Virus record (IMG/VR): IMGVR_UViG_3300033074_002207
DNA length: 64,000 nt
Source: a virus
Taxonomy: Duplodnaviria > Heunggongvirae > Uroviricota > Caudoviricetes
Reading direction: 5' to 3' (one strand)
The notes beneath the pieces were generated by a model, which saw only the letters and a list, made by a program, of their open reading frames with translations, did no database searches and had not been told where the DNA came from. A program made the translations under genes and the position numbers. This document shows positions 4,217-50,631 of this stretch, one piece after another (positions within the stretch are counted from its first letter, which is position 1; every line of letters starts with the position of its first letter).

Positions 4217-4247
4217 GGCGGGTGTGAAAAGCCCGCCTTCAATTTTT
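4217..4247 (+). terminator. intrinsic terminator (ggcggg-loop-cccgcc + ttcaattttt)
   Basis: 6-bp GC stem plus T-run immediately before the 4246 promoter. Confidence 0.55.
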
Positions 4248-11412: not shown

Positions 11413-11489
11413 GGCGGCGTAGTGTAACGGTCAGCATACCACCCTCTCAAGGTCGGAGATTGCGGGTTCGAATCCCGTCGTCGCTACCA
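11413..11489 (+). tRNA. tRNA-Glu(CTC) (hand-folded)
   Basis: acceptor ggcggcg/cgtcgct, anticodon stem ccacc/ggtcg with loop ctCTCaa, T arm gcggg-ttcgaat-cccgt, CCA encoded. Confidence 0.6.
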
Positions 11490-11507
11490 AAATCTCAATC
11501 AACACAC

Positions 11508-11583
11508 GGGGCGGTCGTCTAGCGGTATAGGATTTATCCCTTTCAAGGATAAGAGCGGAGTTCGAGTCTCCGTCGCCCTACCA
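11508..11583 (+). tRNA. tRNA-Glu(TTC) (hand-folded)
   Basis: acceptor ggggcgg/tcgccct, anticodon stem tatcc/ggata with loop ctTTCaa, CCA encoded. Confidence 0.6.
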
Positions 11584-11647
11584 AATTGATTTAATCAGAT
11601 ACTTGTAGTTTAAAGGTGAGCACAGTTCTTTTAACGAAAGACTAACC

Positions 11648-12151
11648 ATGCCTATATGCGATAAGTGTCAATGTTCATTTCCAAATCATGTTGTAGTTGA
11701 TGGTGTGCAAAGAAATCTTTGTAAACGTAGATTTTGTCTTGTCTGCTCTCCTTTTGGAAAGCGTAATAGACTTGATTTGACCAAACTCAAAGATGGAAAC
11801 AAAATTTGTAAAACATGTGGTGTGTTTAAACCAGCGGATGAATTTTATGTTTATAAAGGAGGAAACAAATTAAATCCACACTGCAAGGTGTGTATGAAAA
11901 AGAAAGTATTGGAACAACAAAGAGCATTAAAACAAGCGGCATTAGAATATCTTGGCGGTAAATGCGGTAGATGTGGTTATGATAAATACAGTGGTGCTTT
12001 GGTGTTTCACCATCGTGTTGAATCTGAAAAATCATTTGCAATATCTATGAAACGAGGATATTCTTTAACTGGTGAGGTTAAAGCCGAACTTGATAAATGC
12101 GATTTGGTTTGTGCCAACTGCCATGCAGAAATACATGGCGAAATACAATAG
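11648..12151 (+). CDS. HNH homing endonuclease with N-terminal zinc-ribbon
   Basis: GKCGRCGY...FHHR...CDLVCANCHAEIH. Confidence 0.75.
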   Translation: MPICDKCQCSFPNHVVVDGVQRNLCKRRFCLVCSPFGKRNRLDLTKLKDGNKICKTCGVFKPADEFYVYKGGNKLNPHCKVCMKKKVLEQQRALKQAALEYLGGKCGRCGYDKYSGALVFHHRVESEKSFAISMKRGYSLTGEVKAELDKCDLVCANCHAEIHGEIQ

Positions 12152-12156
12152 AATAT

Positions 12157-12232
12157 GGCCCGTTCGTCTAATGGTCAGGACACAACTCTTTCAAGGTTGG
12201 AACGAGGGGTTCAATTCCCCCACGGGTCACCA
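12157..12232 (+). tRNA. tRNA, anticodon TTC (Glu-type) (hand-folded)
   Basis: acceptor ggcccgt/acgggtc, D stem gtct/ggac, anticodon stem caact/ggttg with loop ctTTCaa, CCA encoded. Confidence 0.55.
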
Positions 12233-12239
12233 AATTCAT

Positions 12240-12317
12240 GCTGGTGTCTTCTAATTGGAATAGGAACCCTCCCTTTCAAGGAGTGCAATGCGGGTTCGAG
12301 TCCCGTCATCAGTACCA
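12240..12317 (+). tRNA. tRNA-like, anticodon loop ctTTCaa (Glu-type), weaker anticodon stem
   Basis: acceptor gctggtg/catcagt, T arm gcggg-ttcgagt-cccgt, CCA encoded; anticodon stem has one mismatch. Confidence 0.45.
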
Positions 12318-14927: not shown

Positions 14928-15279
14928 ATCTGTTGATATCTATGAAATTATCGAATCATGTGCCAAGCATAGTGATATCTTCGGTTTTCATCTAGCCCGC
15001 GTTGTTCCAAAAAACAATCAAAAAATGCCCTATATGGATGCAAGAGAGATTATTGACAACCACGAATGGGGAACACATGGTGAAAGCGGGAAGGAGCCAC
15101 TTACCAAAGTGTTTCTTATTAACTGTGAAACCAATCATCTTAAAAATATCTTGCGAACACAGCCGCAAATCACAGCTTTAACCACATTAGTGATTATGGC
15201 GATTTTAATGGAGCGGGGAGAAATTTCTAAAACTAGCAATGTCATTAAAATTTCCTCAAAATCTAAACAAACGCCATAG
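14920..15279 (+). CDS. hypothetical protein (start at the Met overlapping the upstream stop, ATGGCTAA)
   Basis: in frame with ORF-track entry 14848..15279. Confidence 0.35.
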   Translation: MAKSVDIYEIIESCAKHSDIFGFHLARVVPKNNQKMPYMDAREIIDNHEWGTHGESGKEPLTKVFLINCETNHLKNILRTQPQITALTTLVIMAILMERGEISKTSNVIKISSKSKQTP

Positions 15280-17474: not shown

Positions 17475-17563
17475 GCAGATGTGGCGAAATTGGTAGTACG
17501 CGCTAGTCTCAGAAACTAGTGCCCTAATAAGGCGTGGAGGTTCAAGTCCTCTCATCTGCACCA
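17475..17563 (+). tRNA. tRNA-Leu(CAG), type II long variable arm
   Basis: acceptor gcagatg/catctgc, Leu-type D arm tggcgaaattggtag, anticodon stem ctagt/actag with loop ctCAGaa. Confidence 0.65.
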
Positions 17564-17565
17564 AC

Positions 17566-17651
17566 GGGAATATGGCGAAATTGGTAGCACGCGGCAAGCT
17601 CAAACCTTGCTGGAGAAATCCGTGGGGGTTCAAGTCCCTCTATTCCCACCA
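17566..17651 (+). tRNA. tRNA-Leu(CAA), type II
   Basis: acceptor gggaata/tattccc, anticodon stem gcaag/cttgc with loop ctCAAac. Confidence 0.65.
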
Positions 17652-17658
17652 AGTTTTT

Positions 17659-17742
17659 GCGGGATTGGCGAAATGGTATACGCGCCAGGTTTAGGTTCTG
17701 GTGGAGCAATCCGTGAGAGTTCGAGTCTCTTGTCCCGCACCA
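17659..17742 (+). tRNA. tRNA-Leu(TAG), type II
   Basis: acceptor gcgggat/gtcccgc, anticodon stem ccagg/tctgg with loop ttTAGgt. Confidence 0.55.
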
Positions 17743-17749
17743 AATTTTT

Positions 17750-17837
17750 GGTCTTCTGGCGAAATTGGTAGCACGCGGCATCCTTAAAAGTTGTTGTCAG
17801 AAATGGCGTCTCGGTTCGAGTCCGAGGAAGACCACCA
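17750..17837 (+). tRNA. tRNA-Leu(TAA), type II (one anticodon-stem mismatch)
   Basis: acceptor ggtcttc/gaagacc, loop ctTAAaa. Confidence 0.5.
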
Positions 17838-17845
17838 AATTTAAT

Positions 17846-17934
17846 GCGAACGTGGTGAAATGGAAGCACACGCTAGTCTTAGGAACTAGTCCGTAGCCAA
17901 TCGGGTGAGAGTTCGAGTCTCTCCGTTCGCACCA
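17846..17934 (+). tRNA. tRNA-Leu(TAG), type II
   Basis: acceptor gcgaacg/cgttcgc, anticodon stem ctagt/actag with loop ctTAGga. Confidence 0.6.
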
Positions 17935-17941
17935 AATTTGT

Positions 17942-18018
17942 GCTGCATTGGTCAAAATGGTAAAGGCAACAGGCTCAGACCCTGAAATCTGAGAGTTCGA
18001 ATCTCTCATGCAGCACCA
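17942..18018 (+). tRNA. type-I tRNA with Gln-like D arm and anticodon loop ctCAGac (CAG, a Leu anticodon); non-canonical
   Basis: acceptor gctgcat/atgcagc, D arm gtcaaaatggtaaaggc, 4-bp anticodon stem cagg/cctg, short variable loop. Confidence 0.4.
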
Positions 18019-18020
18019 AT

Positions 18021-18097
18021 GCTCCTCTAGGCCAACTGGTAGAGTCACATAGCTCAAACCTATGCAAGTCTCGGTTCGAATCCGGGGAGGAGCACCA
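18021..18097 (+). tRNA. type-I tRNA with anticodon CAA (a Leu anticodon) in a short-variable-arm scaffold
   Basis: acceptor gctcctc/gaggagc, anticodon stem catag/ctatg with loop ctCAAac. Confidence 0.5.
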
Positions 18098-18100
18098 AAT

Positions 18101-18177
18101 GTCGCGTTAGCCAAATTGGTAAAGGCAACAGGTCGAGAACCTGAAATCTGAGAGTTCGAGTCTCTCACGCGACACCA
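18101..18177 (+). tRNA. type-I tRNA, near-duplicate of 17942 with anticodon loop tcGAGaa (GAG; C at position 33) - non-canonical
   Basis: acceptor gtcgcgt/acgcgac; differs from 17942 mainly in the acceptor and the anticodon loop. Confidence 0.35.
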
Positions 18178-18184
18178 AGTTTTT

Positions 18185-18271
18185 GCGGATGTGGCGAAAT
18201 GGTAGCACGCGCAACGTTGAGGGCGTTGTGGGAGAAATCCCGTGGAGGTTCAAGTCCTCTCATCCGCACCA
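18185..18271 (+). tRNA. tRNA-Leu(GAG), type II
   Basis: acceptor gcggatg/catccgc, anticodon stem caacg/cgttg with loop ttGAGgg. Confidence 0.6.
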
Positions 18272-18343
18272 AATGTCCCGTCAGAGTGTGATATCCACTC
18301 TGCGAAGTCAAAAAACAGATAGGACGCTATCTATTGACCGGAA

Positions 18344-18435
18344 AGCGGGAAGATGACTGTGGCGAAATTGGTAGCCGCTGGCCGTGACGAGCGGTCTGCT
18401 GAGATAAGAACAGCGTGCAGGTTCGAGTCCTGTCG
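18344..18435 (+). tRNA. type-II tRNA-like with non-canonical anticodon loop (tgacgag) and an A1:C72 mismatch; identity unresolved
   Basis: Leu-type D arm, long variable arm, T arm gcagg-ttcgagt-cctgt, CCA encoded. Confidence 0.35.
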
Positions 18436-18446
18436 GTCACACCATT

Positions 18447-18932
18447 GTGTTGTATAATATCACAGATATGAACAAACATTCTATAGAAAATTCGATAAAA
18501 AAGGGTGACATCCTTTTAACGGACAAGGTGTGGTATTATGTGCAGTCAGACCCAGCGGTTGAAAATTCAGGGTATTTCTATGTGCCAAGACCTATAGCAG
18601 AAATCTCCTATGATTATGAAAATTATACTGACGAAGAGATTATGGAATTTTATATAAGAGATACACTGAATGGTCTTCGAAAAGCAGTGGAGAAGAAGTT
18701 AGAAAAATACGCCGACGATATTAGAAAAAAATGGAAGATGGATAGAGAAGAGCTATTAGTGGGAGCAGTTTATAAAACTGGTGATGGAGAATATGTTCAA
18801 ATTGTTCAAAAAGATTCAGATGGTGTAATGTTTCATGAAATGGAAGCCACGCCCACAACCAAATACACAGTGAGAAAGGACGTTCAAAAAAAGTCTAGAT
18901 TTGCTCTAAATATAGTTGAGAGAGTAAAGTAA
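18447..18932 (+). CDS. hypothetical protein
   Basis: 161-aa ORF. Confidence 0.45.
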   Translation: MLYNITDMNKHSIENSIKKGDILLTDKVWYYVQSDPAVENSGYFYVPRPIAEISYDYENYTDEEIMEFYIRDTLNGLRKAVEKKLEKYADDIRKKWKMDREELLVGAVYKTGDGEYVQIVQKDSDGVMFHEMEATPTTKYTVRKDVQKKSRFALNIVERVK

Positions 18933-18980
18933 CCCTGTGTTCAACCCAACTATCCAACTTACAAATAAGAAAATAGTTTT

Positions 18981-19065
18981 GGGAATATGGCGAAATGGTA
19001 GCACGCGCTGGTCTTAAAAATCAGTGGAGAAATCCGTGGAGGTTCGAGTCCACCTATTCCCACCA
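18981..19065 (+). tRNA. tRNA-Leu(TAA), type II
   Basis: acceptor gggaata/tattccc, anticodon stem ctggt/atcag with loop ctTAAaa. Confidence 0.6.
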
Positions 19066-19187
19066 AATGTATGACATCCTCTCACCACTATGGAAAAATC
19101 CTCAAAATCAGCGACAACGCAATAGTTTAGTGTCAGGTAGGGGAACATCCCGGAGCGGAGTCTCCGCCCCCCTGACTCCAAAATATC

Positions 19188-19496
19188 ATGAAAACAAATC
19201 AAGAATCAGTTCTTTCTAAACTCAATCCGAGAGAACAGCAGTTTGTCAAAGACGTGGTAAACGACATGCTATTTGATGCCAACGGTATCAGAATCAAAAT
19301 GAAGGGCGCAAAGCGTATCCGCGCAATCATGGATTCAATAGCATTGTGTATTTACGAATCACAAGGTTCTCACGGAAATCCCGATTTTAACCCGCCTGAT
19401 GCAGATTGGGTGGAGAAAGCCCGAGCAGCACAACTAGCAAAGGAAAAGCCCTACATCATTAAAGACGACGACGATGATGATGATTGGCCTGATTAA
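19188..19496 (+). CDS. hypothetical protein with poly-Asp C-terminus
   Basis: 102-aa ORF. Confidence 0.4.
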   Translation: MKTNQESVLSKLNPREQQFVKDVVNDMLFDANGIRIKMKGAKRIRAIMDSIALCIYESQGSHGNPDFNPPDADWVEKARAAQLAKEKPYIIKDDDDDDDWPD

Positions 19497-19532
19497 TTGA
19501 AGCAAAACGAACGATAATATAATCGAGGAACT

Positions 19533-19733
19533 ATGAAAGTACATTGCTCACAATGCGGCGAAGTTGACATCAACGAGGATATGGGATTCTGGTGTGATGA
19601 ATGCGGTGATAGAATCGAAGAATCAGACATCTTGTCTTCATTAATGGTCGAGTTTAGAATGATACAGCAGCCTGTTCAAGCGCTAGAAGCAAATCGTTCA
19701 TAAAATATTGTGCCCTCTTGTTGGAATGGTAGA
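19533..19733 (+). CDS. small zinc-ribbon protein (CxxC-x14-CxxC); 3' end overlaps the next tRNA so the true stop is uncertain
   Basis: hand translation MKVHCSQCGEVDINEDMGFWCDECGDR...; not present in the supplied ORF track. Confidence 0.25.
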
Positions 19734-19795
19734 CAAGGAGGTCTTAAAAACCTTTGCCGAAAGGCGTCCCAGTTCGAGTCTGGGAGGGGGCACCA
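19713..19795 (+). tRNA. tRNA-Leu(TAA), type II
   Basis: acceptor gccctct/agggggc (two G-U pairs), anticodon stem gaggt/acctt with loop ctTAAaa. Confidence 0.5.
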
Positions 19796-19856
19796 AATTT
19801 AACACACATTGGAATACTTAAAGGTACGTGTCTACCATAAATAGAATAACGAGTAT

Positions 19857-20366
19857 ATGTCACGTTCAAAAACATATACCCCTTCTCAGTTATACGAGGC
19901 TATCCAGGTAAGTACGTCTGTTGCTCAGGTTTTGACTCAACTTGGGTTAAAACCATGTGGTGGAAATTACAAAACAATTAACTCTTATATATCAGAGAAT
20001 CAAATTGACATAAGTCATTTCACTGGTTCGGCTTGGTGTGTGGGGGAAAAGGCAAAATATCTTGCTGATTCAAAACGTCTTTCTATGGAAGATATACTTT
20101 CTGGCAAATGTTCTTATAAATCCACATTCAAATTAAAAAATCGTCTAATAAAAGAAGGTTATTTTGTTCACAAGTGTTATAACTGCGGATTGGAAGAGTG
20201 GCAGGGGCGTCCCATTCCTCTTGAATTAGAGCATAAAAACGGAAACAATGCAGATAATCATATTGATAATCTAACCTTGTTGTGTCCAAATTGTCATGCA
20301 CAAACAAAAACATATCGAGGGCGAAACAAGAAGAAAAAAGATGTTGATGTTTTAGATATGGTATAA
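19857..20366 (+). CDS. HNH homing endonuclease
   Basis: LELEHKNGNNADNHIDNLTLLCPNCHAQT. Confidence 0.75.
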   Translation: MSRSKTYTPSQLYEAIQVSTSVAQVLTQLGLKPCGGNYKTINSYISENQIDISHFTGSAWCVGEKAKYLADSKRLSMEDILSGKCSYKSTFKLKNRLIKEGYFVHKCYNCGLEEWQGRPIPLELEHKNGNNADNHIDNLTLLCPNCHAQTKTYRGRNKKKKDVDVLDMV

Positions 20367-27682: not shown

Positions 27683-27759
27683 GGGAGTTTGGCAGAGATG
27701 GTCTATGCGTCGGGTTGAAGCCCCGATTTAAGTCGGTTCGAGTCCGATGGCTCCCACCA
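27683..27759 (+). tRNA. tRNA with anticodon GAA (Phe-type), Tyr/Ser-like D arm but short variable loop
   Basis: acceptor gggagtt/ggctccc, anticodon stem tcggg/cccga with loop ttGAAgc. Confidence 0.55.
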
Positions 27760-27769
27760 AGATTTATGT

Positions 27770-27846
27770 GCCTCTTTGGTATAAACTGGTGAGTACGCTA
27801 GCCTGAAGAGCTTGAAGTCGGAGTTTGATTCTCCGGGGAGGCACCA
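27770..27846 (+). tRNA. tRNA, anticodon loop ctGAAga (GAA) with imperfect anticodon stem
   Basis: acceptor gcctctt/gggaggc, T arm cggag-tttgatt-ctccg. Confidence 0.45.
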
Positions 27847-27851
27847 AATAC

Positions 27852-27927
27852 GGGGATGTGGCAGAGTTGGTCAATGCGCTCGGCTGAAAACCGAGTTATC
27901 AGGGTTCGATTCCCTGCTACCCCACCA
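27852..27927 (+). tRNA. tRNA-like, anticodon GAA; two acceptor-stem mismatches (possible pseudo-tRNA)
   Basis: anticodon stem ctcgg/ccgag with loop ctGAAaa, T arm caggg-ttcgatt-ccctg. Confidence 0.4.
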
Positions 27928-27931
27928 ATAC

Positions 27932-28008
27932 CCGGACTTAGCTCACGGTGGTAGAGCGCCTCGCTGAAGACGAGGAGGTACTCGGTTCGACTCCGAGAGT
28001 CCGGGCCA
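27932..28008 (+). tRNA. tRNA-Phe(GAA), canonical
   Basis: acceptor ccggact/agtccgg, D stem gctc/gagc, anticodon stem cctcg/cgagg with loop ctGAAga, CCA encoded; overall very close to a bacterial tRNA-Phe design. Confidence 0.7.
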
Positions 28009-40034: not shown

Positions 40035-40829
40035 ATGATTTATGCAATTTCAGATATACACGGCGACAAAAAGCAGGCAATAAAATTGCTTCAAAAACAC
40101 AACGTCATTGATGGCGAGAATCAATGGATTGCCAAAACCTCTACACTTGTGGTTAATGGTGATTCAACAGACCGTGGGACTGATGGTATAGGTGTACTTC
40201 GCTTTTTTTACAATCTTGCTCAAGAGGCAGAATCACATGGCGGAAGGGTTATTCACACGATGGGGAATCACGATGCTTTAATTTTGTGTATAGCCCTACA
40301 TGCTTACAAGGAAGATTATAACTACGAACACTCATATGTTTTCAGGGGCAATGGCGGAAAGGCACACGAGGCTATATCTCTTTCCAGACTGCATGATTTG
40401 CGAAAATATGTACAGTCTTTTCCATTGATGTGTCGTGTTGATGATGTTTTATTTCAACATGCCGATGGTTTTGAAATTTATGAGTTAGCGTCAAAGGATG
40501 GCACCACGCCAGAAGAAAAGATTAGAGCAGCAAATGATTATTGCCGCTCAAAAGCCAATACTGCTTGGGGTGCATGGAATTTGTTTTATGACTTAACCGA
40601 CGAGCGTTATTGGCGAAATAGTGGCGAGTTGATACCAGAGTATCTGGAGTCTTTCGGTGCGCGTATGGTTGTGCATGGACACACGGGTTTTCATGGCGAT
40701 TCACCTCATTTCTACCTAGATAATCAGGTTGTTAATATTGATGCCATTTTGAGTCGTGGATACCGGGCAGATGAAGACAGAGGATGCGTGCTGGTGATTG
40801 ATAGCCCCGGAACTGATATCGTTGTCTAG
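40035..40829 (+). CDS. calcineurin-like metallophosphoesterase (ApaH/PP-type Ser/Thr phosphatase family)
   Basis: DIHGD, GDSTDRG, GNHD motifs. Confidence 0.8.
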   Translation: MIYAISDIHGDKKQAIKLLQKHNVIDGENQWIAKTSTLVVNGDSTDRGTDGIGVLRFFYNLAQEAESHGGRVIHTMGNHDALILCIALHAYKEDYNYEHSYVFRGNGGKAHEAISLSRLHDLRKYVQSFPLMCRVDDVLFQHADGFEIYELASKDGTTPEEKIRAANDYCRSKANTAWGAWNLFYDLTDERYWRNSGELIPEYLESFGARMVVHGHTGFHGDSPHFYLDNQVVNIDAILSRGYRADEDRGCVLVIDSPGTDIVV

Positions 40830-40830
40830 T

Positions 40831-40859
40831 TTCCTCAAAACGCCTCTAAGCATGATATA
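40831..40859 (+). promoter_or_regulatory. promoter: TTCCTC-17-GATATA, overlapping a 14-bp inverted repeat (cgcctctaagcatg / catgtttagaggcg)
   Basis: sequence. Confidence 0.45.
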
Positions 40860-40864
40860 AAAAC

Positions 40865-41128
40865 ATGTTTAGAGGCGTCAAAACCCCAATTCCAACCTAT
40901 CTCTCGATAGATATTGATTTTTTCGGATATCCATTTCTTGCCAGTTTAGAAGAGTTTGAGTTGTTTTTAGAGGGTGTTGCCAAATTTTCATCTGATAACA
41001 ATATTTTAATTCAAGCTATGGTCAACCACCCACGACTGAAAGTCGTGGGCTTGTTACAAGCGCCGAAGGCGCGAACAATAGGGAGATTGACTGCTCCCCT
41101 AAAGAAGCTATATTCTTACTGGCATTAA
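40865..41128 (+). CDS. hypothetical ORF whose 3' half overlaps the IS right-end hairpin; possibly a 5' remnant of a gene disrupted by the IS
   Basis: SIDIDFFGYPF (SxDxD) motif; the ORF reads into the IS end. Confidence 0.3.
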   Translation: MFRGVKTPIPTYLSIDIDFFGYPFLASLEEFELFLEGVAKFSSDNNILIQAMVNHPRLKVVGLLQAPKARTIGRLTAPLKKLYSYWH

Positions 41129-42262
41129 AGTCAGCATTCTCTGTGTGTCCGCAGGACACACAGAGAAACAAAGATTGACTCTTTCTATTGGCCTTTTCAC
41201 AATGTCCACATTCGCTACACGTCTGCGACGTGTAGCGAGCAGGGATAATAGCTAAAGGCACTCCATAGAGTTCAGCTTTGTAAGCAATGTAGCTTCTGAG
41301 TTGGGCGAACGCCCAACTCATTCTTTGACTTCTATTCACCCGCTTGACCGTTACTCTTTTATTGATATTTGTTAGCTCTTCGAGAGCTAACAAATATCCG
41401 AGTGCCTTTGCTTTTGTTACTAGAAGTTTTGAAATGACGTGATTGACGTCTCTTCTGAATCTGGATTCTTTTTGTCCAGCTTTCTTGACTCTTCTCATTG
41501 CAGAGCGCGTTCCGCGCTTCTGCAATCGTTGGCGATGAGCATGATACTGCTTTCGTTTCTTCTCGATGTGCTCTCCTGAGAACACATCTCCCAAAGAACT
41601 TACGGCAATTTTGTTCACTCCCAAGTCGATGCCTATGACGCCCTTGGCGTCATAGGCTGATGCTGTTGGGATTTCCAAGTTGCAGAGCAAGTAGAACTTG
41701 TTGTTTTGATAGACTAAATCTACTTGTCCTCTTCTAAATTTGAATCTGTCTTTGTCGTAGACTTGGATTGGAATTTCCATTCTCCCATCATTAGTCCAGA
41801 TACTGACAGTCCCTGAATCCCTGAAAGTAATCACTCTGTCGTCGTAGACGACAGCAGAAGTCTTCTTGAAGAAGTTCCTCTGATGTCTATTTCTCTTCAC
41901 TTTATAGGAGTCGCTCACGACTCCTATAGCTCGTACAACGAGCTGGGAAGAGAAGTCGGGCAGCGCTTCGCGCTGCCCTCTATACACCATATGATGTAGC
42001 TGAACTTTTTGATACTCTTTGGCTTCAAATGCTTGATTGGAAATATCGTTGCAAATATCGTTGAAAGTATTCATAGTGCGCAGAAGCGCACTATGTTGAA
42101 TCTCATTTGTATTGAGCTTCACTTTCAAAGTGATATTCACAATAAGGATTTTATGGTAGAAATGCTTTTTGTCCTTGTTGTTTTGAACAAATGTGCTATA
42201 ATTATTTCAGAGGCTCGATTCCTCCCACGATTAAAGTCGTGGGTTTCCTCTCGCAATTATCA
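41000..42262 (-). mobile_element. IS200/IS605-family insertion sequence carrying only tnpB (IS1341-like), with subterminal hairpins at both ends
   Basis: hairpins cccacgac-tgaaa-gtcgtggg at about 41027-41050 and cccacga-ttaaa-gtcgtggg at about 42225-42245; boundaries approximate. Confidence 0.6.
41022..42140 (-). CDS. tnpB: TnpB (OrfB) RuvC-like RNA-guided nuclease / IS605 accessory protein
   Basis: C-terminal RuvC-III plus zinc finger ...ARYTSQTCSECGH...CVSCGHTENADFNASKNI. Confidence 0.8.
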   Translation of the reverse strand: MNITLKVKLNTNEIQHSALLRTMNTFNDICNDISNQAFEAKEYQKVQLHHMVYRGQREALPDFSSQLVVRAIGVVSDSYKVKRNRHQRNFFKKTSAVVYDDRVITFRDSGTVSIWTNDGRMEIPIQVYDKDRFKFRRGQVDLVYQNNKFYLLCNLEIPTASAYDAKGVIGIDLGVNKIAVSSLGDVFSGEHIEKKRKQYHAHRQRLQKRGTRSAMRRVKKAGQKESRFRRDVNHVISKLLVTKAKALGYLLALEELTNINKRVTVKRVNRSQRMSWAFAQLRSYIAYKAELYGVPLAIIPARYTSQTCSECGHCEKANRKSQSLFLCVSCGHTENADFNASKNIASLGEQSISLLFAPSALVTSPRLSVVGG

Positions 42263-42720
42263 TGAATCATCATCAAATGCTCAGGTGTGTTAATCAATCT
42301 CATGCCCGTCGCTTGGTAAATTTAGATGCGCACTCGGATTTGGCTAACAAAGATGTTGATGAACTCAACATTGGAACTTGGATTTCTTATGTGAAGTGGC
42401 GCAAACAGGGGCAGTATATTTGGCTTCGTAACGCAAGTGACCCCTACGGGGGAGAGTGTGGATATAGTTTTACTTATCCACACGCCCGACATACTGATTG
42501 GAGTTCTGTGACAACTCATCATATTGATTATGTTCCAACTCTTCGAGATTTAAACAAAATGTCTGTGGTGGAAATTGGCATGTGCATGTCTCCAGCTTTT
42601 TGCGAGAAAGACCACGAAATGTCTTTCGTTCATTGGCTCAAAGAAAATAAAATTCAATATCGCAAAGGGTATCGAGATGAACACAAATCATATCGAGCAA
42701 TTTCTCCGCCCAAGCGCTAA
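42262..42720 (+). CDS. hypothetical protein (DAHSD motif)
   Basis: 152-aa ORF abutting the IS left end. Confidence 0.35.
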   Translation: MNHHQMLRCVNQSHARRLVNLDAHSDLANKDVDELNIGTWISYVKWRKQGQYIWLRNASDPYGGECGYSFTYPHARHTDWSSVTTHHIDYVPTLRDLNKMSVVEIGMCMSPAFCEKDHEMSFVHWLKENKIQYRKGYRDEHKSYRAISPPKR

Positions 42721-42723
42721 ATA

Positions 42724-42800
42724 AGAGATTCCTCAAAATGATTTGAGGTAAGATAAGAAAGATATGGCAATCATAAAGTCAGCCCTAGACACCGATTTGT
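42724..42800 (+). repeat. direct repeat copy 1: duplicated pncB promoter + first about 15 codons (MAIIKSALDTDLYKS...)
   Basis: gattcctcaaaatgatttgaggtaagataagaaagatatggcaatcataaagtcagc versus the 43510-43586 copy. Confidence 0.65.
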
Positions 42801-42844
42801 ACAAATCTAAAGGTTGATGATACAGATTTGTAGAAATAGTTGTC

Positions 42845-43537
42845 ATGAACATTTTTATCTATGCGCTTCTTGATTTAGACAACAACCCGTTTTACGTTGG
42901 TAAAACCAACAATATAAAAAAAAGACAGCATGGGCATTTGAACATGGCGCGTCGTGGTTTTGTTTCGCCAGTGTATTCTAAAATTAGAAAATTGCAGAGA
43001 CAGGGCTGGTTATTTAATTTTCAAATTTTAGAATATTGTACAGAATTGAACTGCGATGAAAGGGAGCGATTTCATATTGCTCATCTAAAAGCCCAAGGAT
43101 TTAAATTAACAAATTTGGCAGAAGGCGGTGAGGGTGGATGCTCTTCTGAATCAGCAAGAAAAGGTGTGGAGACTCGCAGGAAAAATGGCACATTAGCTCA
43201 CACTGATGAATCTAAACAAAAGCTTTCAAAAGCACACAAGGGCATTTTGAAAACCGAAGAACACAAAGCTTCTCTTCGAAAAGCCTGGAAGCGTACACCG
43301 GAGCAACTTAAACAGCAAGGGCAAAAATCATCGGTTACGAGCAAAGGAAGAATCAACATCAAGCAATATAGGTGCGTAGACCCCAATGGCACAGAGCATA
43401 TAACATCGGAGGGGCTCACAAAATTTTGTGAAGAACACGGGTTGTTACGAGCAAATATGATTAAAGTTGCTAACGGAGAGCGTTCCAATCATAAAGGGTG
43501 GAAATGTGAAAGATTTCCTCAAAATGATTTGGGGTAA
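42845..43537 (+). CDS. GIY-YIG homing endonuclease with NUMOD-like C-terminal repeats
   Basis: IYALLDLDNNPFYVGKTNNIKKR...H...E; repeated ESKQKLSKAHKG / EHKASLRKAWK modules. Confidence 0.8.
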   Translation: MNIFIYALLDLDNNPFYVGKTNNIKKRQHGHLNMARRGFVSPVYSKIRKLQRQGWLFNFQILEYCTELNCDERERFHIAHLKAQGFKLTNLAEGGEGGCSSESARKGVETRRKNGTLAHTDESKQKLSKAHKGILKTEEHKASLRKAWKRTPEQLKQQGQKSSVTSKGRINIKQYRCVDPNGTEHITSEGLTKFCEEHGLLRANMIKVANGERSNHKGWKCERFPQNDLG

Positions 43538-43586
43538 GATAGTGAAATATGGCTATTATTAAATCTGCTGTAGATAATGACACATA
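43510..43586 (+). repeat. direct repeat copy 2 (functional pncB promoter and start)
   Basis: gatttcctcaaaatgatttggggtaagatagtgaaatatggctattattaaatctgc. Confidence 0.65.
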
Positions 43587-44754
43587 TAAATTTTCTATGC
43601 AACAGGCTGTATTGCACAACTACCCCGATGTTCCCGTTCGATACAATTTTGCTTGCCGAAGCAAAGGGGTGGATTTACGACCTTTTCGACAAGAAATTCG
43701 GGATGAAATTGACGCTCTAGAGGGTGTAATTTTTACCGGGCAAGAACTGGATTATCTCTCTGCGTTGCCTTGGGCAAAGCCTAGCTACATTGAATCGCTT
43801 CGCTCTTTCAGGTTTCATCCAGAATATATCAAGCTTGGTGAAAAGAACAATCAACTTACACTCACGTTTTCTGGCAACTGGTATGAGACGATTTTATTCG
43901 AAGTTCCAGTTTTGGCGATTATTGAAGAAGTGTACACACGCAACATGTTTCCTTTTACAATGGAGCGTGAGGTTCAGGCAAACCAGTTGCTTATTGATAA
44001 AATCAACTGGCTTCTAGCTCAGTTGTCTTCAAACAGCTTCCCTAATGCTTGTTCGGACTTTTTGCTGACAGAAATGGGAACGCGCCGACGATATTCGCGG
44101 GTGTGGCAAGAAACTGTAGTGCGACGATTGGCAGAGAAAATGCCGAAGAATTTAGTCGGCACAAGCAATATCTATTTGGCTAAGGAATATGGGTTGAAGC
44201 CCGTTGGCACAATGGCTCACGAATGGCTACAAGCCCATCAAGCACTTGCACCACTGCGAAAGTTTCAGAAAACTGCACTTGAAGTCTGGATGCATGAATA
44301 TCGAGGCTGGCTTGGAATTGCCCTATCCGATGTTGTTGGATTTGCAGCTTTTCTTGTCGATTTCGACATGCTTCTGTCGAAGGCATATGACGGCGCTCGG
44401 CATGACAGTGGCGACCCTGTTGACTGGGGGCATCAGCTTGTCAAGCACTACGAGAAACACTGGATTGACTCGCGCACTAAAACCGCCGTTTTTAGCGATG
44501 GATTGGACTTTGAGAAGGCTTTCGAGCTTTACAAAGAATTCAATGAGTTGTTCAAGATTTTCTTCGGCATTGGAACCTATCTGACAAACGATATGGGCGA
44601 TGATGCGCCGCCGCTTTCTATCGTTATCAAAATGGTAGAATGTTGCGGTGAGCCTGTGGCTAAACTTTCAGACAGTCCCGGTAAAGAGATGTGCGACAAC
44701 AACGTGTATCTCGATTATTTGCGACAATCCACCAGTAGAATTATCAATTCATAA
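43549..44754 (+). CDS. pncB: nicotinate phosphoribosyltransferase
   Basis: N-terminus DNDTYKFSMQQAVLHNYPDVPV parallels the PncB consensus LDTDAYKLHMQQAVFHHY. Confidence 0.75.
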   Translation: MAIIKSAVDNDTYKFSMQQAVLHNYPDVPVRYNFACRSKGVDLRPFRQEIRDEIDALEGVIFTGQELDYLSALPWAKPSYIESLRSFRFHPEYIKLGEKNNQLTLTFSGNWYETILFEVPVLAIIEEVYTRNMFPFTMEREVQANQLLIDKINWLLAQLSSNSFPNACSDFLLTEMGTRRRYSRVWQETVVRRLAEKMPKNLVGTSNIYLAKEYGLKPVGTMAHEWLQAHQALAPLRKFQKTALEVWMHEYRGWLGIALSDVVGFAAFLVDFDMLLSKAYDGARHDSGDPVDWGHQLVKHYEKHWIDSRTKTAVFSDGLDFEKAFELYKEFNELFKIFFGIGTYLTNDMGDDAPPLSIVIKMVECCGEPVAKLSDSPGKEMCDNNVYLDYLRQSTSRIINS

Positions 44755-44932
44755 AAAAGTGTACGATAATATGGAATAGTTTCTGTATATCACAAGTAAC
44801 ATGTGGATTGAAGATTGGGTACCATATCTTTTTATTTGTAGCGTCTTGATAGCTGCAAGTTTTAGTTCTGTTCGTGAAGCGGTGTTATACGTGGTTGTCA
44901 AAATAAAAAGTAAGCGCGGCGGTTTGTTGTAA

Positions 44933-45976
44933 ATGGCACGGTGGTACGAAACCAGAGCTAAGCTATACGAGGAATTTTCAGCAAATTTAGCGTTCCACGA
45001 ACCGCATAATAAGGGGTTGTTTAAATGCCCAATATGTCTTGATTTATTTACACAAGACTATTTAGTGTCAAAGCCTAATCAAAATGCCGTGGTGGTGGCG
45101 CATATTATTCCTAAAAGCTTTCTAAACGCTGGATACACACTATGTTGCATCAAATGTGACAGCAAATTTGGTTCAACCCTGGCTGGCGCAGAGCGTGTTC
45201 TTCGACATAATCTGAGATTGGCAAAATGGCGAAACAAGCCATATATCACACGCACAACATTTGAAACAACGCATGGCTCCGTCACTTTGTTGGCTGAAAT
45301 TACATGGGGAGAAAACGGGGAGCCACTACCCACATTTCGTGTAGATGAAATACCAAAAGGTATTAATCACGAAATGCTACTTGAACAATGCAATGCGTTT
45401 GTAACTCGTTCCCATACTGGTGAGCCGAATGATTTTACGCTCTGGAAGTCATATCTATATAACAGAAAAATCCGTTATGCAAATCTAAATTGGTGGCACA
45501 GTCTTTATCTTTTTATGTTTCATCACTTTGGATACCAATGGGTGTTAAACGACCCACGCGGCGAGTTGATTCGCAATCAACTTAACAATTTGAATGAAAA
45601 TATCATTCCTGAAATTTTCTTAGAGCCCAAGGTTTATCCACTCGTGGCACCATATGAAGCGCCGCCGCACGACCATCTACCACAGCGTCCAAGTTTGCGA
45701 TTTGGCATAGATAAAGATGGAAATGTTATCAACAGCGGTTATTTTATGGTTTTCCCCAAGCTTAATGAGACGATGGATAACATTACGCTATTCCTGCCTT
45801 GGAATTTTGAGACGTGTGTGGAGCGCCCAGAGCCTGTTAGTTTTACAGCAAGGCTAAAATATGGACATTCTGTTATTAAACACCGGATTCCAGATTATAT
45901 ATCGCCTGATGATGTGGTAAAATATCACATTCCCAATCAGGAGCAATCAAATGAATCTGTTTTCATTAATAGCTGA
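44933..45976 (+). CDS. hypothetical protein with Cys/His cluster (CPICLD...AHIIPKS...CIKCD), possible HNH-like fold
   Basis: 347-aa ORF. Confidence 0.35.
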   Translation: MARWYETRAKLYEEFSANLAFHEPHNKGLFKCPICLDLFTQDYLVSKPNQNAVVVAHIIPKSFLNAGYTLCCIKCDSKFGSTLAGAERVLRHNLRLAKWRNKPYITRTTFETTHGSVTLLAEITWGENGEPLPTFRVDEIPKGINHEMLLEQCNAFVTRSHTGEPNDFTLWKSYLYNRKIRYANLNWWHSLYLFMFHHFGYQWVLNDPRGELIRNQLNNLNENIIPEIFLEPKVYPLVAPYEAPPHDHLPQRPSLRFGIDKDGNVINSGYFMVFPKLNETMDNITLFLPWNFETCVERPEPVSFTARLKYGHSVIKHRIPDYISPDDVVKYHIPNQEQSNESVFINS

Positions 45977-48926: not shown

Positions 48927-49418
48927 ATGCATGAAGTTTTTATCTGGACAGCGTTCAGGCATGTTTCTGTAAAAGAACCCTTTCAACAGTTTTATGCTAA
49001 TTATATAACAGAAATTTGGGACAACTTATCACGAGGCACACAGCAATGTATTGTGCGCGATGTGGAAGACATGGTGAGAAACCCTCACTGGTATCAAGAT
49101 GGCGCGATTGACAATTGGGGATTCATTCTTAATCTGCCACTTAATGCAGACACTAGAGGCGAGGGGCAAGTCAAACCAAATGAAATGTTTATGCTTTTTG
49201 CAGTTAAGTATGCTGCTGGGCGCATGACCTATGTTGTCAGTTGGGTGGTTGATGAGCTTCGCAAAGTCTGGGATGGATTGCAGTATGAAACCAAATTTGA
49301 AATCCAAAGCTATCTATCTTTGCGAATGGACAGAGAGGGTGCGCTCGGGATGGATTGTGACAAGAAGCAATGGCTGGATGTAATTAGCTGGAAACTAGAA
49401 GAACCAGCAAATTCATAA
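48927..49418 (+). CDS. hypothetical protein (Trp-rich)
   Basis: 163-aa ORF. Confidence 0.45.
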   Translation: MHEVFIWTAFRHVSVKEPFQQFYANYITEIWDNLSRGTQQCIVRDVEDMVRNPHWYQDGAIDNWGFILNLPLNADTRGEGQVKPNEMFMLFAVKYAAGRMTYVVSWVVDELRKVWDGLQYETKFEIQSYLSLRMDREGALGMDCDKKQWLDVISWKLEEPANS

Positions 49419-49424
49419 TCAACT

Positions 49425-49453
49425 TTCCTCAAAACTGAAAATCGGGATATAAT
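49425..49453 (+). promoter_or_regulatory. promoter: TTCCTC-17-TATAAT
   Basis: ttcctc aaaactgaaaatcggga tataat. Confidence 0.6.
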
Positions 49454-49458
49454 AAACC

Positions 49459-50631
49459 ATGCAAAAGATTAATGGAATCCCGGTTTTCGGACATCCTGTC
49501 GATGAACAGGCTTTAGCGCAGATTCAGAACTGCATGCCAGAGGCATGCGGCGCGGCTCTTATGGGCGACCATCACCTTGGTTATTCTGTGCCCATTGGCG
49601 GCGTGGTCGTTTACGATGGAATGATTTCTCCAAGCGGCGTGGGATATGACATCGCATGTGGAAACAAGGCTGTCCGACTGGACATGGACGGAGACGAAGC
49701 TCGAAAGAACATCAAGACCATCATGGATGATGTTTGGAAGAGCATCGAATTTGGAATTGGACGCAAGAACCAAGAGGTAGTAGACCACGAGTTGTTCGAC
49801 AGTGACGCTTGGCGTTTCGGTGTGGCGTCAGATTTCAAGGACAAGGCGCGTGAACAGCTTGGAACTGTCGGAAGCGGAAACCACTATGTGGACATTTTCG
49901 TTGACGAAAAGAACCGGGTTTGGGTTGGCGTCCACTTTGGAAGCCGTGGACTTGGACATACTTTAGCAAGCCACTTCATTAAGTTGGGTGGTGGAAGCGA
50001 CGGTATGCATGTAAAGCCCGTGGTATTCGATGTCAATTCCAACCTTGGCGCAGATTATATCGAGTGCATGAATCTTGCTGGCGAATACGCTTATGCAGGA
50101 CGTGACTGGGTGTGTTCGCGTGTGGCGCAAATTCTTGGGGCACCGATTGTTGAAGAAATTCACAATCACCACAACTTTGCGTGGAAGGAAACTCACAACG
50201 GTCGAGACTATTGGGTTGTCCGCAAGGGCGCAACCCCGGCATTTCCTGGTCAAAAGGGATTTGTTGGCGGTTCAATGGGTGACCGTTCTGTGATTCTGGA
50301 AGGCTTGGAGTCAGATGCGTCTCGTGAAGCGTTTTATTCCACTGTGCATGGTGCTGGTCGTATTATGTCTCGTACAGAGGCGACTGGACTGAGCAAGTGG
50401 GGTAAGCGACGTGTGCGCGAACCTGGCGTTAAGCAAGAAGACATGGACGCTTGGGTGAAGAAGGTTGGTGTAGAACTTCGTGGCGCGGGTGTTGACGAAT
50501 CCCCGCAGGTGTACAAGCGCATCAATGATGTTCTTGAACATCACGAAGGAACCATCAAGATTCTACATACGCTTACGCCAATCGGCGTGGCTATGGCTGG
50601 AAGCGACACCTTCGACCCGTACAAGGATTAG
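49459..50631 (+). CDS. rtcB: RtcB-family RNA ligase (3'-phosphate/5'-OH)
   Basis: GVGYDIACGN, GSGNHYVD, HNHHNF, VHGAGR. Confidence 0.8.
   Translation: MQKINGIPVFGHPVDEQALAQIQNCMPEACGAALMGDHHLGYSVPIGGVVVYDGMISPSGVGYDIACGNKAVRLDMDGDEARKNIKTIMDDVWKSIEFGIGRKNQEVVDHELFDSDAWRFGVASDFKDKAREQLGTVGSGNHYVDIFVDEKNRVWVGVHFGSRGLGHTLASHFIKLGGGSDGMHVKPVVFDVNSNLGADYIECMNLAGEYAYAGRDWVCSRVAQILGAPIVEEIHNHHNFAWKETHNGRDYWVVRKGATPAFPGQKGFVGGSMGDRSVILEGLESDASREAFYSTVHGAGRIMSRTEATGLSKWGKRRVREPGVKQEDMDAWVKKVGVELRGAGVDESPQVYKRINDVLEHHEGTIKILHTLTPIGVAMAGSDTFDPYKD

Follow-up and report, generated by a model that had tools for sequence, protein, structure and literature searches.

Free-standing homing endonuclease genes (HEGs) of phages are usually described as intergenic, their products cutting a neighbouring gene. 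The Seg genes of phage T4 are normally described in the same way, without duplication of the target gene. Here, we describe a HEG of the GIY-YIG type found directly upstream of pncB, the gene encoding nicotinate phosphoribosyltransferase (NAPRTase), in a 64,000-nt stretch of DNA of a virus of the class Caudoviricetes (IMG/VR record IMGVR_UViG_3300033074_002207); the whole stretch is called the window below. The gene is flanked by two copies of the promoter and 5' end of pncB, and we consider it likely to be part of a mobile cassette which supplies its target gene with a new promoter and 5' end. As far as can be judged from the sequences, the cassette would be specific for the pncB 5' end in a family of uncultured huge phages.

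In its layout, the endonuclease resembles T4 SegA–G and I-TevI: an N-terminal GIY-YIG domain, in which the I-TevI catalytic positions are kept, is followed by a linker and putative DNA-binding modules. As with the T4 Seg genes, it is encoded by a separate open reading frame (ORF) between genes, shows presence/absence polymorphism in related phages and, in one related locus (L176; related loci are denoted by L numbers), was accompanied by co-conversion of a flank (PMC2988022). It differs from the Seg genes in that the window cassette lies within the 5' end of the target gene, bears an apparent replacement promoter and start, and leaves a displaced relic. One-sided illegitimate repair of a double-strand break (DSB) is documented for T4 intron homing (PMC2988022). 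Such repair would produce a doubled promoter and 5' end just like that of the window. The comparison of L176 with its HEG-less relative L166 gives the same picture as in T4: homology is confined to one side, and a microhomology marks the junction on the other. The T4 case was experimental, with limited homology that had been engineered, whereas here natural and repeatedly propagated events in uncultured phages would be concerned (PMC2988022).

Hairpins that sequester the ribosome-binding site and contain an internal late promoter are known for I-TevI, I-TevII, I-TevIII and segB of T4 and for mobE of Aeh1 (PMC2988022). Similarly to I-TevI, segB and mobE, a hairpin covers the HEG initiation region at the locus studied here, a conserved promoter-like pair of hexamers lies inside it, and shorter transcripts would drop its 5' arm. 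Unlike these systems, the window has no visible Shine–Dalgarno sequence, its promoters lie ~8–9 nt before the starts, the T4-type late promoter TATAAATA is not enriched, and the 5' arm of the hairpin is made from the relic of the target gene.

Terminal gene duplication beside a free-standing HEG reportedly occurs at atp6 of Allomyces. Another such case is that of the mitochondria of Endoconidiophora resinifera, in which C-terminal segments of atp6 and cob are flanked by GIY-YIG and LAGLIDADG ORFs (PMC6279837). As with the fungal mitochondrial HEGs, an imported end of the target gene appears to have replaced the resident end, and the displaced end persists nearby in a non-functional form. The fungal cases concern the 3' end, often as an in-frame fusion, whereas here the 5' end and the promoter of a phage gene are involved, and the fragment would have gained a role in a hairpin. 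No description of this architecture in phages was found in limited literature searches.

The endonuclease gene and the two copies of the pncB start

The features of the locus and the left junctions of the cassette are collected in Table 1. The endonuclease matched Pfam family PF01541 with 30.4 bits (cutoff 22.6; 4.9e-7) and, over residues 1–224, PHROG 314 "homing endonuclease" (1.6e-25). Besides the catalytic domain, the protein contains NUMOD3-like repeats (18.5 bits for NUMOD3, under the cutoff of 20.4) and a putative C-terminal DNA-binding module at residues ~171–221, within which residues 172–221 matched PHROG 2081 and residues 171–220 weakly matched the C-terminus of I-HmuI. The match of the catalytic domain to that of I-TevI (1mk0, phmmer) was weak (E = 0.016) and collinear; it paired fIY with GIY, YVG with YVG, KR with KR, H with H, and ERE with ER(A) at the Glu75 position. 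Among the GIY-YIG homing endonucleases of the I-TevI/Seg type, the protein is a new and distant member. Its gene is a separate ORF upstream of an uninterrupted pncB, not part of an intron or an intein. An Rfam scan of positions 40500–45200 found no family at E <= 1, neither a group I intron nor another known RNA; thus, the HEG is free-standing. The pncB product matched PF04095 (2.4e-73) and PF17767 (3.1e-33), which together span its full length.

Table 1. Features of the pncB locus in the window and left junctions of the cassette in the window and in related loci
Feature	Position	Strand	Sequence or description
Promoter copy A	42729-42755	+	TTCCTCAAAATGATTTGAGGTAAGATA; box TTCCTCAAAA at 42729-42738; -10-like TAAGAT at 42749-42754
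Putative displaced pncB 5' relic, 17-codon ORF	42764-42817	+	MAIIKSALDTDLYKSKG, then stop; codons 1-14 (42764-42805) pncB-derived
Hairpin	42788-42844	+	inverted repeat, 86% complementary
Candidate internal promoter	42809-42836	+	AAAGGT, 16 nt, TAGAAA; 8 nt between its end and the HEG start codon
Free-standing GIY-YIG homing endonuclease gene, 230 aa	42845-43537	+	catalytic domain at residues ~3-90
Promoter copy B, drives pncB	43515-43541	+	TTCCTCAAAATGATTTGGGGTAAGATA; 7 nt, then pncB ATG at 43549
pncB, nicotinate phosphoribosyltransferase, 401 aa, intact	43549-44754	+	NAPRTase domains full-length
Left junction, window			GAC ACC GAT TTG TAC AAA then TCTAAAGGT
Left junction, L174/L176			TTA GAT GAC ACC GAT TTA TAT AAA then CAAAAAGGT
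Left junction, L168			GCG GAT AAC GAT TTA TAT AAA then CTCAAAGGT
Left junction, L172			GTA GAT ACA TAT TTA TAT AAA then TCGCAAAGGT
Left junction, L170/L173			..CTATTTCTATAAA then TCTAAAGGT

A repeat of ~81 nt, consisting of the promoter box, the -10 hexamer, ATG and pncB codons 1–14, was found at positions 42726–42806 (copy A) and 43512–43592 (copy B). An earlier, sequence-only reading of this DNA had reported a block of ~77 bp at 42724 and 43510 on both sides of the GIY-YIG ORF, a 17-aa pncB-like peptide encoded by the upstream copy, and similarity reaching ~15 codons past the promoter box. The block is real: both copies can be read in the sequence, and a gapped local alignment of the two ~150-nt regions scored 62 against 16.6 ± 2.4 for shuffled sequences (maximum 26). 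This alignment extends from the promoter to codon ~9 and, with softer scoring, to codon 14. The 17-codon ORF was also recovered; 11 of its first 14 residues match pncB (MAIIKSAVDNDTYK), and the boundary between the relic and the cassette lies after position 42805. Copy A follows the stop codon of ORF152 (42720); its ATG lies 8 nt after the promoter core and 35 nt from the start of the box. The promoter of copy B overlaps the last 8 codons of the HEG, the stop codon of which (TAA, 43535–43537) falls within the -10 hexamer. In the repeat search, the 27-nt promoter cores of the two copies were identical at 26 of 27 positions (96%); the core occurs twice in the window even when up to 3 mismatches are allowed, with 0 occurrences expected.

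The coding parts of the two copies are far less alike. They are identical at 27 of 42 nt (64%) and differ at the other 15; nine codons differ synonymously and three non-synonymously, and at all three non-synonymous sites the family-typical residue is that of copy A. Copy A encodes the exact consensus N-terminus of the family, MAIIKSALDTDLYK, the same as in P0015. Because the coding segments differ at 15/42 nt, with nine codons changed synonymously, copies A and B are two diverged functional alleles of the pncB start. A comparison with HEG-less relatives, suggested together with the sequence-only reading, placed copy A closer to L164, L166 and L179 (33/42 each) than to its own copy B; with the pncB 5' end of the HEG-bearing L172 it shares 35/42. 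All nine differences between copy A and the functional start of L179 are synonymous, and the three bases unique to copy A are all at third positions (P ~0.012 under neutrality). Neither a further relic copy nor a paralogous HEG was found in the window. The repeats, ~81 nt long and only 64% identical in the coding part, are not the short identical target-site duplications of a transposon.

The promoter box belongs to a motif spread over the whole window. TTCCTCAA was found 20 times on the + strand and 0 times on the − strand, and TTTCCTCAAA occurred 13 times against 0.35 expected. Each box is followed by a TATAAT-like hexamer, and the distance from the start of the box to ATG is 34–36 nt at 10 annotated gene starts. 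The -10 hexamer is separated from ATG by only 8–9 nt, with no Shine–Dalgarno sequence visible; this geometry suggests leaderless or near-leaderless mRNAs. Since copy A has the complete architecture typical of this genome, it could drive the HEG. The earlier proposal that the HEG borrowed a pncB promoter therefore keeps its first half, while the route by fresh target duplication is not supported. A spacer of the same type (AAAATGATTGGG) precedes pncB in the HEG-less L179 as well, so the 26/27 identity of the two promoters is at least partly due to promoter conservation; by the same observation, recent intragenomic gene conversion as a source of this identity was weakened. Further boxes of the TTCCTCAA(AA) form lie, for example, at 15252, 30960, 40831, 47756, 49425, 52805, 59442 and 63037 (+), and some TTCCTCAA boxes (11268, 17207, 27459) precede tRNA arrays.

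Related loci and movement of the cassette

A megablast search of GenBank phages with the 7.8-kb neighbourhood of the locus gave zero matches; thus, it has no nucleotide-level relative there. Among GenBank phages, the best protein matches did not exceed 45% identity for pncB and 29% for the endonuclease. Exact-pattern scans of IMG/VR with pncB peptides and with a 24-nt promoter core yielded nothing, and profile-guided scans of metagenome and viral contigs yielded only distant pncB genes (at most 51% identity), of no use for context. The informative relatives were obtained by exact-protein look-ups. The pncB homologues at 68–86% identity were confined to metagenome assemblies, the closest to that of the window being L162 (86%).

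Homologous HEGs, 63–78% identical to that of the window, lie directly upstream of pncB in L168/L169, L170/L171, L172, L173, L174/L175 and L176. At L164/L165, L166/L167 and L179, pncB has no HEG, and L162 and L180 have only 3' remnants of one. The HEG is thus sporadically present and absent at one homologous locus among related genomes; the genes upstream of it vary between lineages.

Every HEG-bearing locus retains, immediately 5' of the HEG, a piece of pncB that ends at codon 14 and leads into the same cassette sequence (TCTAAAGGT, as in the leader TCTAAAGGT...TAGAAATA, or a variant of it). The common left junction consists of TAYAAA and then a conserved AAAGGT, which is invariant in the window and in six other lineages (L168, L170, L172, L173, L174 and L176). 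An intact relic was found in the window only, the relic of each other HEG-bearing lineage having suffered deletions. In L168, L174 and L176, the promoter box is kept, and the spacer, ATG and codons 1–7 are deleted; in L170 and L173, codons ~10–14 alone are left. Because the same junction occurs in six other lineages, the founding event is old and shared, predating the divergence of these HEGs. The invasion of the window genome was probably comparatively recent, since its relic is the least decayed and differs from functional pncB genes only synonymously.

The identity matrices of HEG and pncB are incongruent. L168 and L174 share 96% identity in pncB and 75% in the HEG; L174 and L176 share 91% in the HEG and 78% in pncB; and the pncB of L176 is 94% identical to that of the HEG-less L166. 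The remnant in L162 is 74–76% identical to group-2 HEGs against 65% to the HEG of the window. The clearest case is L176, which is identical to L174 (100%) from -44 to +53 of pncB and in which pncB from ~+51/54 onwards is 97–100% identical to that of L166. As the identity with L174 ends at +53 and the likeness to L166 begins at ~+51/54, the right crossover lies at codons 16–18 (pncB nt 47–54). On the left side, homology with L166 stops just past the -10 hexamer of the resident promoter, and the join is placed at AGGGT(A/G)GA..AT, a microhomology to the leader of a 65–67-aa ORF accompanying the group-2 HEGs; the resulting order is resident promoter, cassette, imported promoter. Flanking markers were therefore co-converted in this relative. 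The clean tract, together with the microhomology at the left junction, indicates homing by one-sided, illegitimate DSB repair in L176, and this tract and the incongruent matrices argue that the cassette moves. The HEG of L176 is itself a mosaic, with an N-terminal half similar to L174 and a C-terminal half similar to L168.

The 65–67-aa ORF (MAGLKRIAKICGGIEIQGVRYVYDYV...; L176:2990-3193, L168:1998-2195, L174:535-738) was found to accompany the group-2 HEG cassette into differing upstream contexts. The HEG-associated pncB alleles differ at codons 12 and 15–16, with N-terminal variants such as DTYKFS and similar. Replacement of Leu12 by Thr ("DTYK") was considered as a marker of HEG-bearing loci; it was right for L176 and for the remnant-bearing L180, and failed for L172 and L173. 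It seems to mark particular co-conversion tracts and is no general rule.

Both remnant loci have unusual gene structures. The 155-aa ORF of L162 called "Metallophos" (L162:2904-3371) is a chimera joining the first ~100 metallophosphatase codons, in frame, to the final ~50 of a group-2 HEG; the deletion took the rest of both genes and everything between them. In L180 (L180:3-1165), a TnpB-like ORF is followed by a HEG 3' remnant of ~55 codons, the promoter and pncB. Of the HEG, these two independent remnants have kept nothing but the putative C-terminal DNA-binding module, and their first HEG codons nearly coincide. This coincidence may be due to chance or to retention of the segment, for example, as a sequence needed upstream of the pncB promoter.

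The hairpin and the genomic surroundings

The 5' arm of the hairpin (42788–42808) corresponds to relic codons 9–15. The loop (42809–42823) contains the stop codon of the relic ORF (42815–42817) and the invariant AAAGGT, and the last base of the 3' arm (42824–42844) is position -1 of the HEG ATG. The helix was found in all HEG-bearing lineages, so a hairpin over the translation-initiation region of the HEG is conserved. The predicted folding energy was -15.8 kcal/mol in the window and -21 to -28.1 kcal/mol in L170, L173 and L172 (z from -4.1 to -5.6). Across 6 distinct sequences, 85% of the cells were paired, against 31–46% when the arms were slid; six pairs had changed on both sides, and none of 500 shuffles reached the covariation score. 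RNAalifold recovered the same stem. The arm in the window is still pncB-like, in keeping with copy A being the displaced resident start; that of L170 and L173 has changed in the direction of perfect complementarity.

In L170 and L172, the stop codon of the upstream ORF abuts the base of the stem. Because upstream stop codons are located in the loop or at the stem base, translational coupling of the relic ORF or another upstream ORF to the HEG is possible. A role as intrinsic terminator was ruled out for either hairpin, as no T-run follows on the + strand.

The candidate promoter inside the hairpin has the form AAAGGT-N16-TA(G/T)AAA; its hexamers and 16-nt spacing are invariant at 7 loci, and the spacer sequence varies. 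In the window, the frequency of this pattern exceeds expectation (4 occurrences, 0.42 expected), and the motif pair may represent a second promoter class. On this thin basis, we put forward as a hypothesis that a promoter inside the hairpin yields transcripts devoid of the 5' arm. Sequences of the T4-type late promoter TATAAATA are present in the 3' arm in some relatives, yet they were not enriched in the window (1 against 2.6 expected), and this candidate was rejected. The same geometry as in the HEG hairpin was found at 19820–19847 (AAAGGT-N16-TAGAAT-N9-ATG), between a tRNA-Leu gene, which it directly follows, and the ORF at 19857–20366.

By gene content, the window (GC ~42%) resembles part of a huge uncultured phage genome. 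It contains 23 arrayed tRNA genes, among them 12 for tRNA-Leu, 5 for tRNA-Phe and 4 for tRNA-Glu; the arrays are dense (11413–12317, 17475–19795 and 27683–28008), with many near-duplicate isoacceptors. Arginyl-tRNA synthetase, a macro-domain protein, a TnpB element and NAPRTase are encoded in the window; a contig that has this part in common with it also codes for RtcB, phosphoribosyl pyrophosphate (PRPP) synthetase and RNA ligase. The gene for arginyl-tRNA synthetase is present in the window, L164, L168, L170 and L172 and absent from L166, L176 and L180. A gene for a protein of ~203 aa, intact in L172 (L172:4022-4633), is split in the window into ORFs of 87 and 152 aa (pieces at 40865–41020 and 42262–42720); the interrupter at 41022–42140 (−) is a TnpB element of the IS200/605 type with a Cas12f-like TNB domain. 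Directly upstream of rtcB, relatives have a 275-aa ORF with a faint LAGLIDADG_3 match (L166:9784-10611, L167:4940-5767, L176:8144-8971, L177:4275-5102, L180:5971-6390), which the window lacks (48927–49459); with it, the neighbourhood would have presence/absence polymorphism for a second HEG.

Proposed mechanism, rival explanations and meaning

The mobile unit would start just past pncB codon 14 and comprise, from left to right, the leader with the 3' arm of the hairpin, the HEG, the pncB promoter and pncB codons 1 to ~14–18. In a HEG-less genome, pncB would be cut near codons 14–17; this position is suggested by the end of the relic at codon 14 and the co-conversion boundary of L176 at codons 16–18. 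The right end of the break would then invade the pncB of a donor, and repair synthesis would copy the donor pncB 5' end, promoter, HEG and leader. The left end would be joined either through annealing of the nascent strand at the short pncB relic borne by the cassette or at a microhomology. The resident promoter and codons 1–14 (copy A) would thereby be displaced upstream as a dead 17-codon ORF, and pncB would stay intact because the cassette brings a new promoter and start (copy B), the first ~14–18 codons of pncB probably being imported with it. The founding event would have been an old one-sided, illegitimate homing, and each later invasion of a naive genome would renew a full-length relic, which then decays.

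The relic would have been co-opted as the 5' arm of a hairpin occluding the start of the HEG. On mRNAs that begin at promoter A or in upstream genes, little HEG translation would be expected unless the arm is opened by ribosomes on the 17-codon ORF; alternatively, the promoter inside the hairpin would give a leaderless HEG mRNA.

The sequence-only reading had taken the repeat for a fresh homing footprint, made when a very recent insertion duplicated ~80 nt of the genome's own target, so that both copies stem from one resident sequence. The homing part of this proposal agrees with our results. The near-identity of the promoter parts and the intact ATG and frame of copy A would also fit a fresh duplication, but the coding parts are identical at 27/42 nt only, with synonymous sites nearly saturated, and the identical junction recurs in six other lineages, the HEGs of which are only 63–78% identical. 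Moreover, we know of no GIY-YIG enzyme that produces long target duplications. A single-resident origin of both copies is therefore very improbable. Chance or promoter-only similarity beside a fortuitous short ORF can practically be dismissed: the promoter motif is abundant, and an identical 18-nt stretch recurs at 4246, yet the similarity continues through 14 codons to give the exact consensus N-terminus MAIIKSALDTDLYK, the alignment score is far above that of shuffles, and homologous relics occur in relatives.

An ancient duplication, inherited vertically with no recent re-homing, deserves more weight, although we regard it as unlikely. According to this explanation, selection keeps copy A intact: promoter A would be maintained for driving the HEG, and the 17-codon ORF because its translation opens the hairpin. 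The junction ancestral to all HEG-bearing lineages, the exact genome-typical geometry of promoter A, and the stop codons in the loop of the window and at the hairpin base of L170 and L172 speak for it. Coupling, however, selects for translation and not for the exact amino acids of pncB, yet copy A differs from functional genes only synonymously; in every other lineage the promoter or ATG has decayed; and the incongruence of HEG and pncB and the L176 tract show that cassettes have moved. An assembly chimera, in which a HEG-less strain was joined to a HEG-bearing strain with a short relic at pncB-like words to give a false full-length copy A, is even less probable than a fresh duplication. In its favour, copy A comes from one JGI contig only, and the break of the Logan contig that bears the same pncB falls in the HEG 3' end. 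Against a chimera, the stretch shared by pncB and the relic is ~20 nt at most, which should be below the usual final assembly k-mers, the same overall architecture was obtained from independent samples by independent assemblers, and a real recombinant of exactly such kind is predicted by homing. The contig in question (L001:1-52, SRR32380201), the only other assembly with an identical pncB, starts ~40 nt inside the HEG 3' end; its break may reflect strain heterogeneity in the form of HEG variants or low coverage.

Several points weigh against the mobile cassette as we describe it. Copy A of the window is known from one assembly, and neither a donor nor a HEG-less sister of the window was found among the relatives. 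The assignment of copy A as the displaced resident start and of copy B as the imported one, suggested by analogy with L176 and by the synonymous-only changes of copy A, draws on few sites (the three unique changes, P ~0.012), and the predicted cleavage position on the relic end and one co-conversion boundary. Promoter conservation explains only part of the contrast between near-identical promoters (26/27) and 64% coding identity. The regulatory role that we infer for the relic hairpin is affected by the window hairpin barely exceeding shuffled sequences (z = -1.7), by its weakness in L168 and L176, by the small sample for covariation (6 distinct sequences) and by the occluded region containing no visible Shine–Dalgarno sequence.

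If the mobile cassette is accepted, the element lies within the 5' end of the gene that it targets and makes up for this with an imported promoter and start codon. The locus would then illustrate how one-sided, microhomology-mediated homing spreads in nature, with a clear co-conversion tract in metagenomic phages. A displaced gene fragment would have been reused as a regulatory hairpin arm. The cleavage site is predicted at pncB codons ~14–17, and decay of the relic may serve as a relative clock of invasion. For annotation, doubled promoters and short ORFs resembling pncB would be accounted for by such relics, which also point to chimeric ORFs, the metallophosphatase–HEG fusion of L162 among them.

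More tentatively, and with confidence slightly short of even, we suggest that the cassette is a self-contained 5'-end replacement module, which inserts after codon 14 of a gene of an essential pathway without inactivating it, owing to its spare promoter and start. If this is true, the resident start is left behind at each invasion as a datable relic, whose end marks the cleavage site, and the HEG then uses this relic as the inhibitory arm of a switch for its own translation. The direct repeats could permit scarless loss of the cassette by recombination; as a built-in route of loss, they would close the homing cycle.

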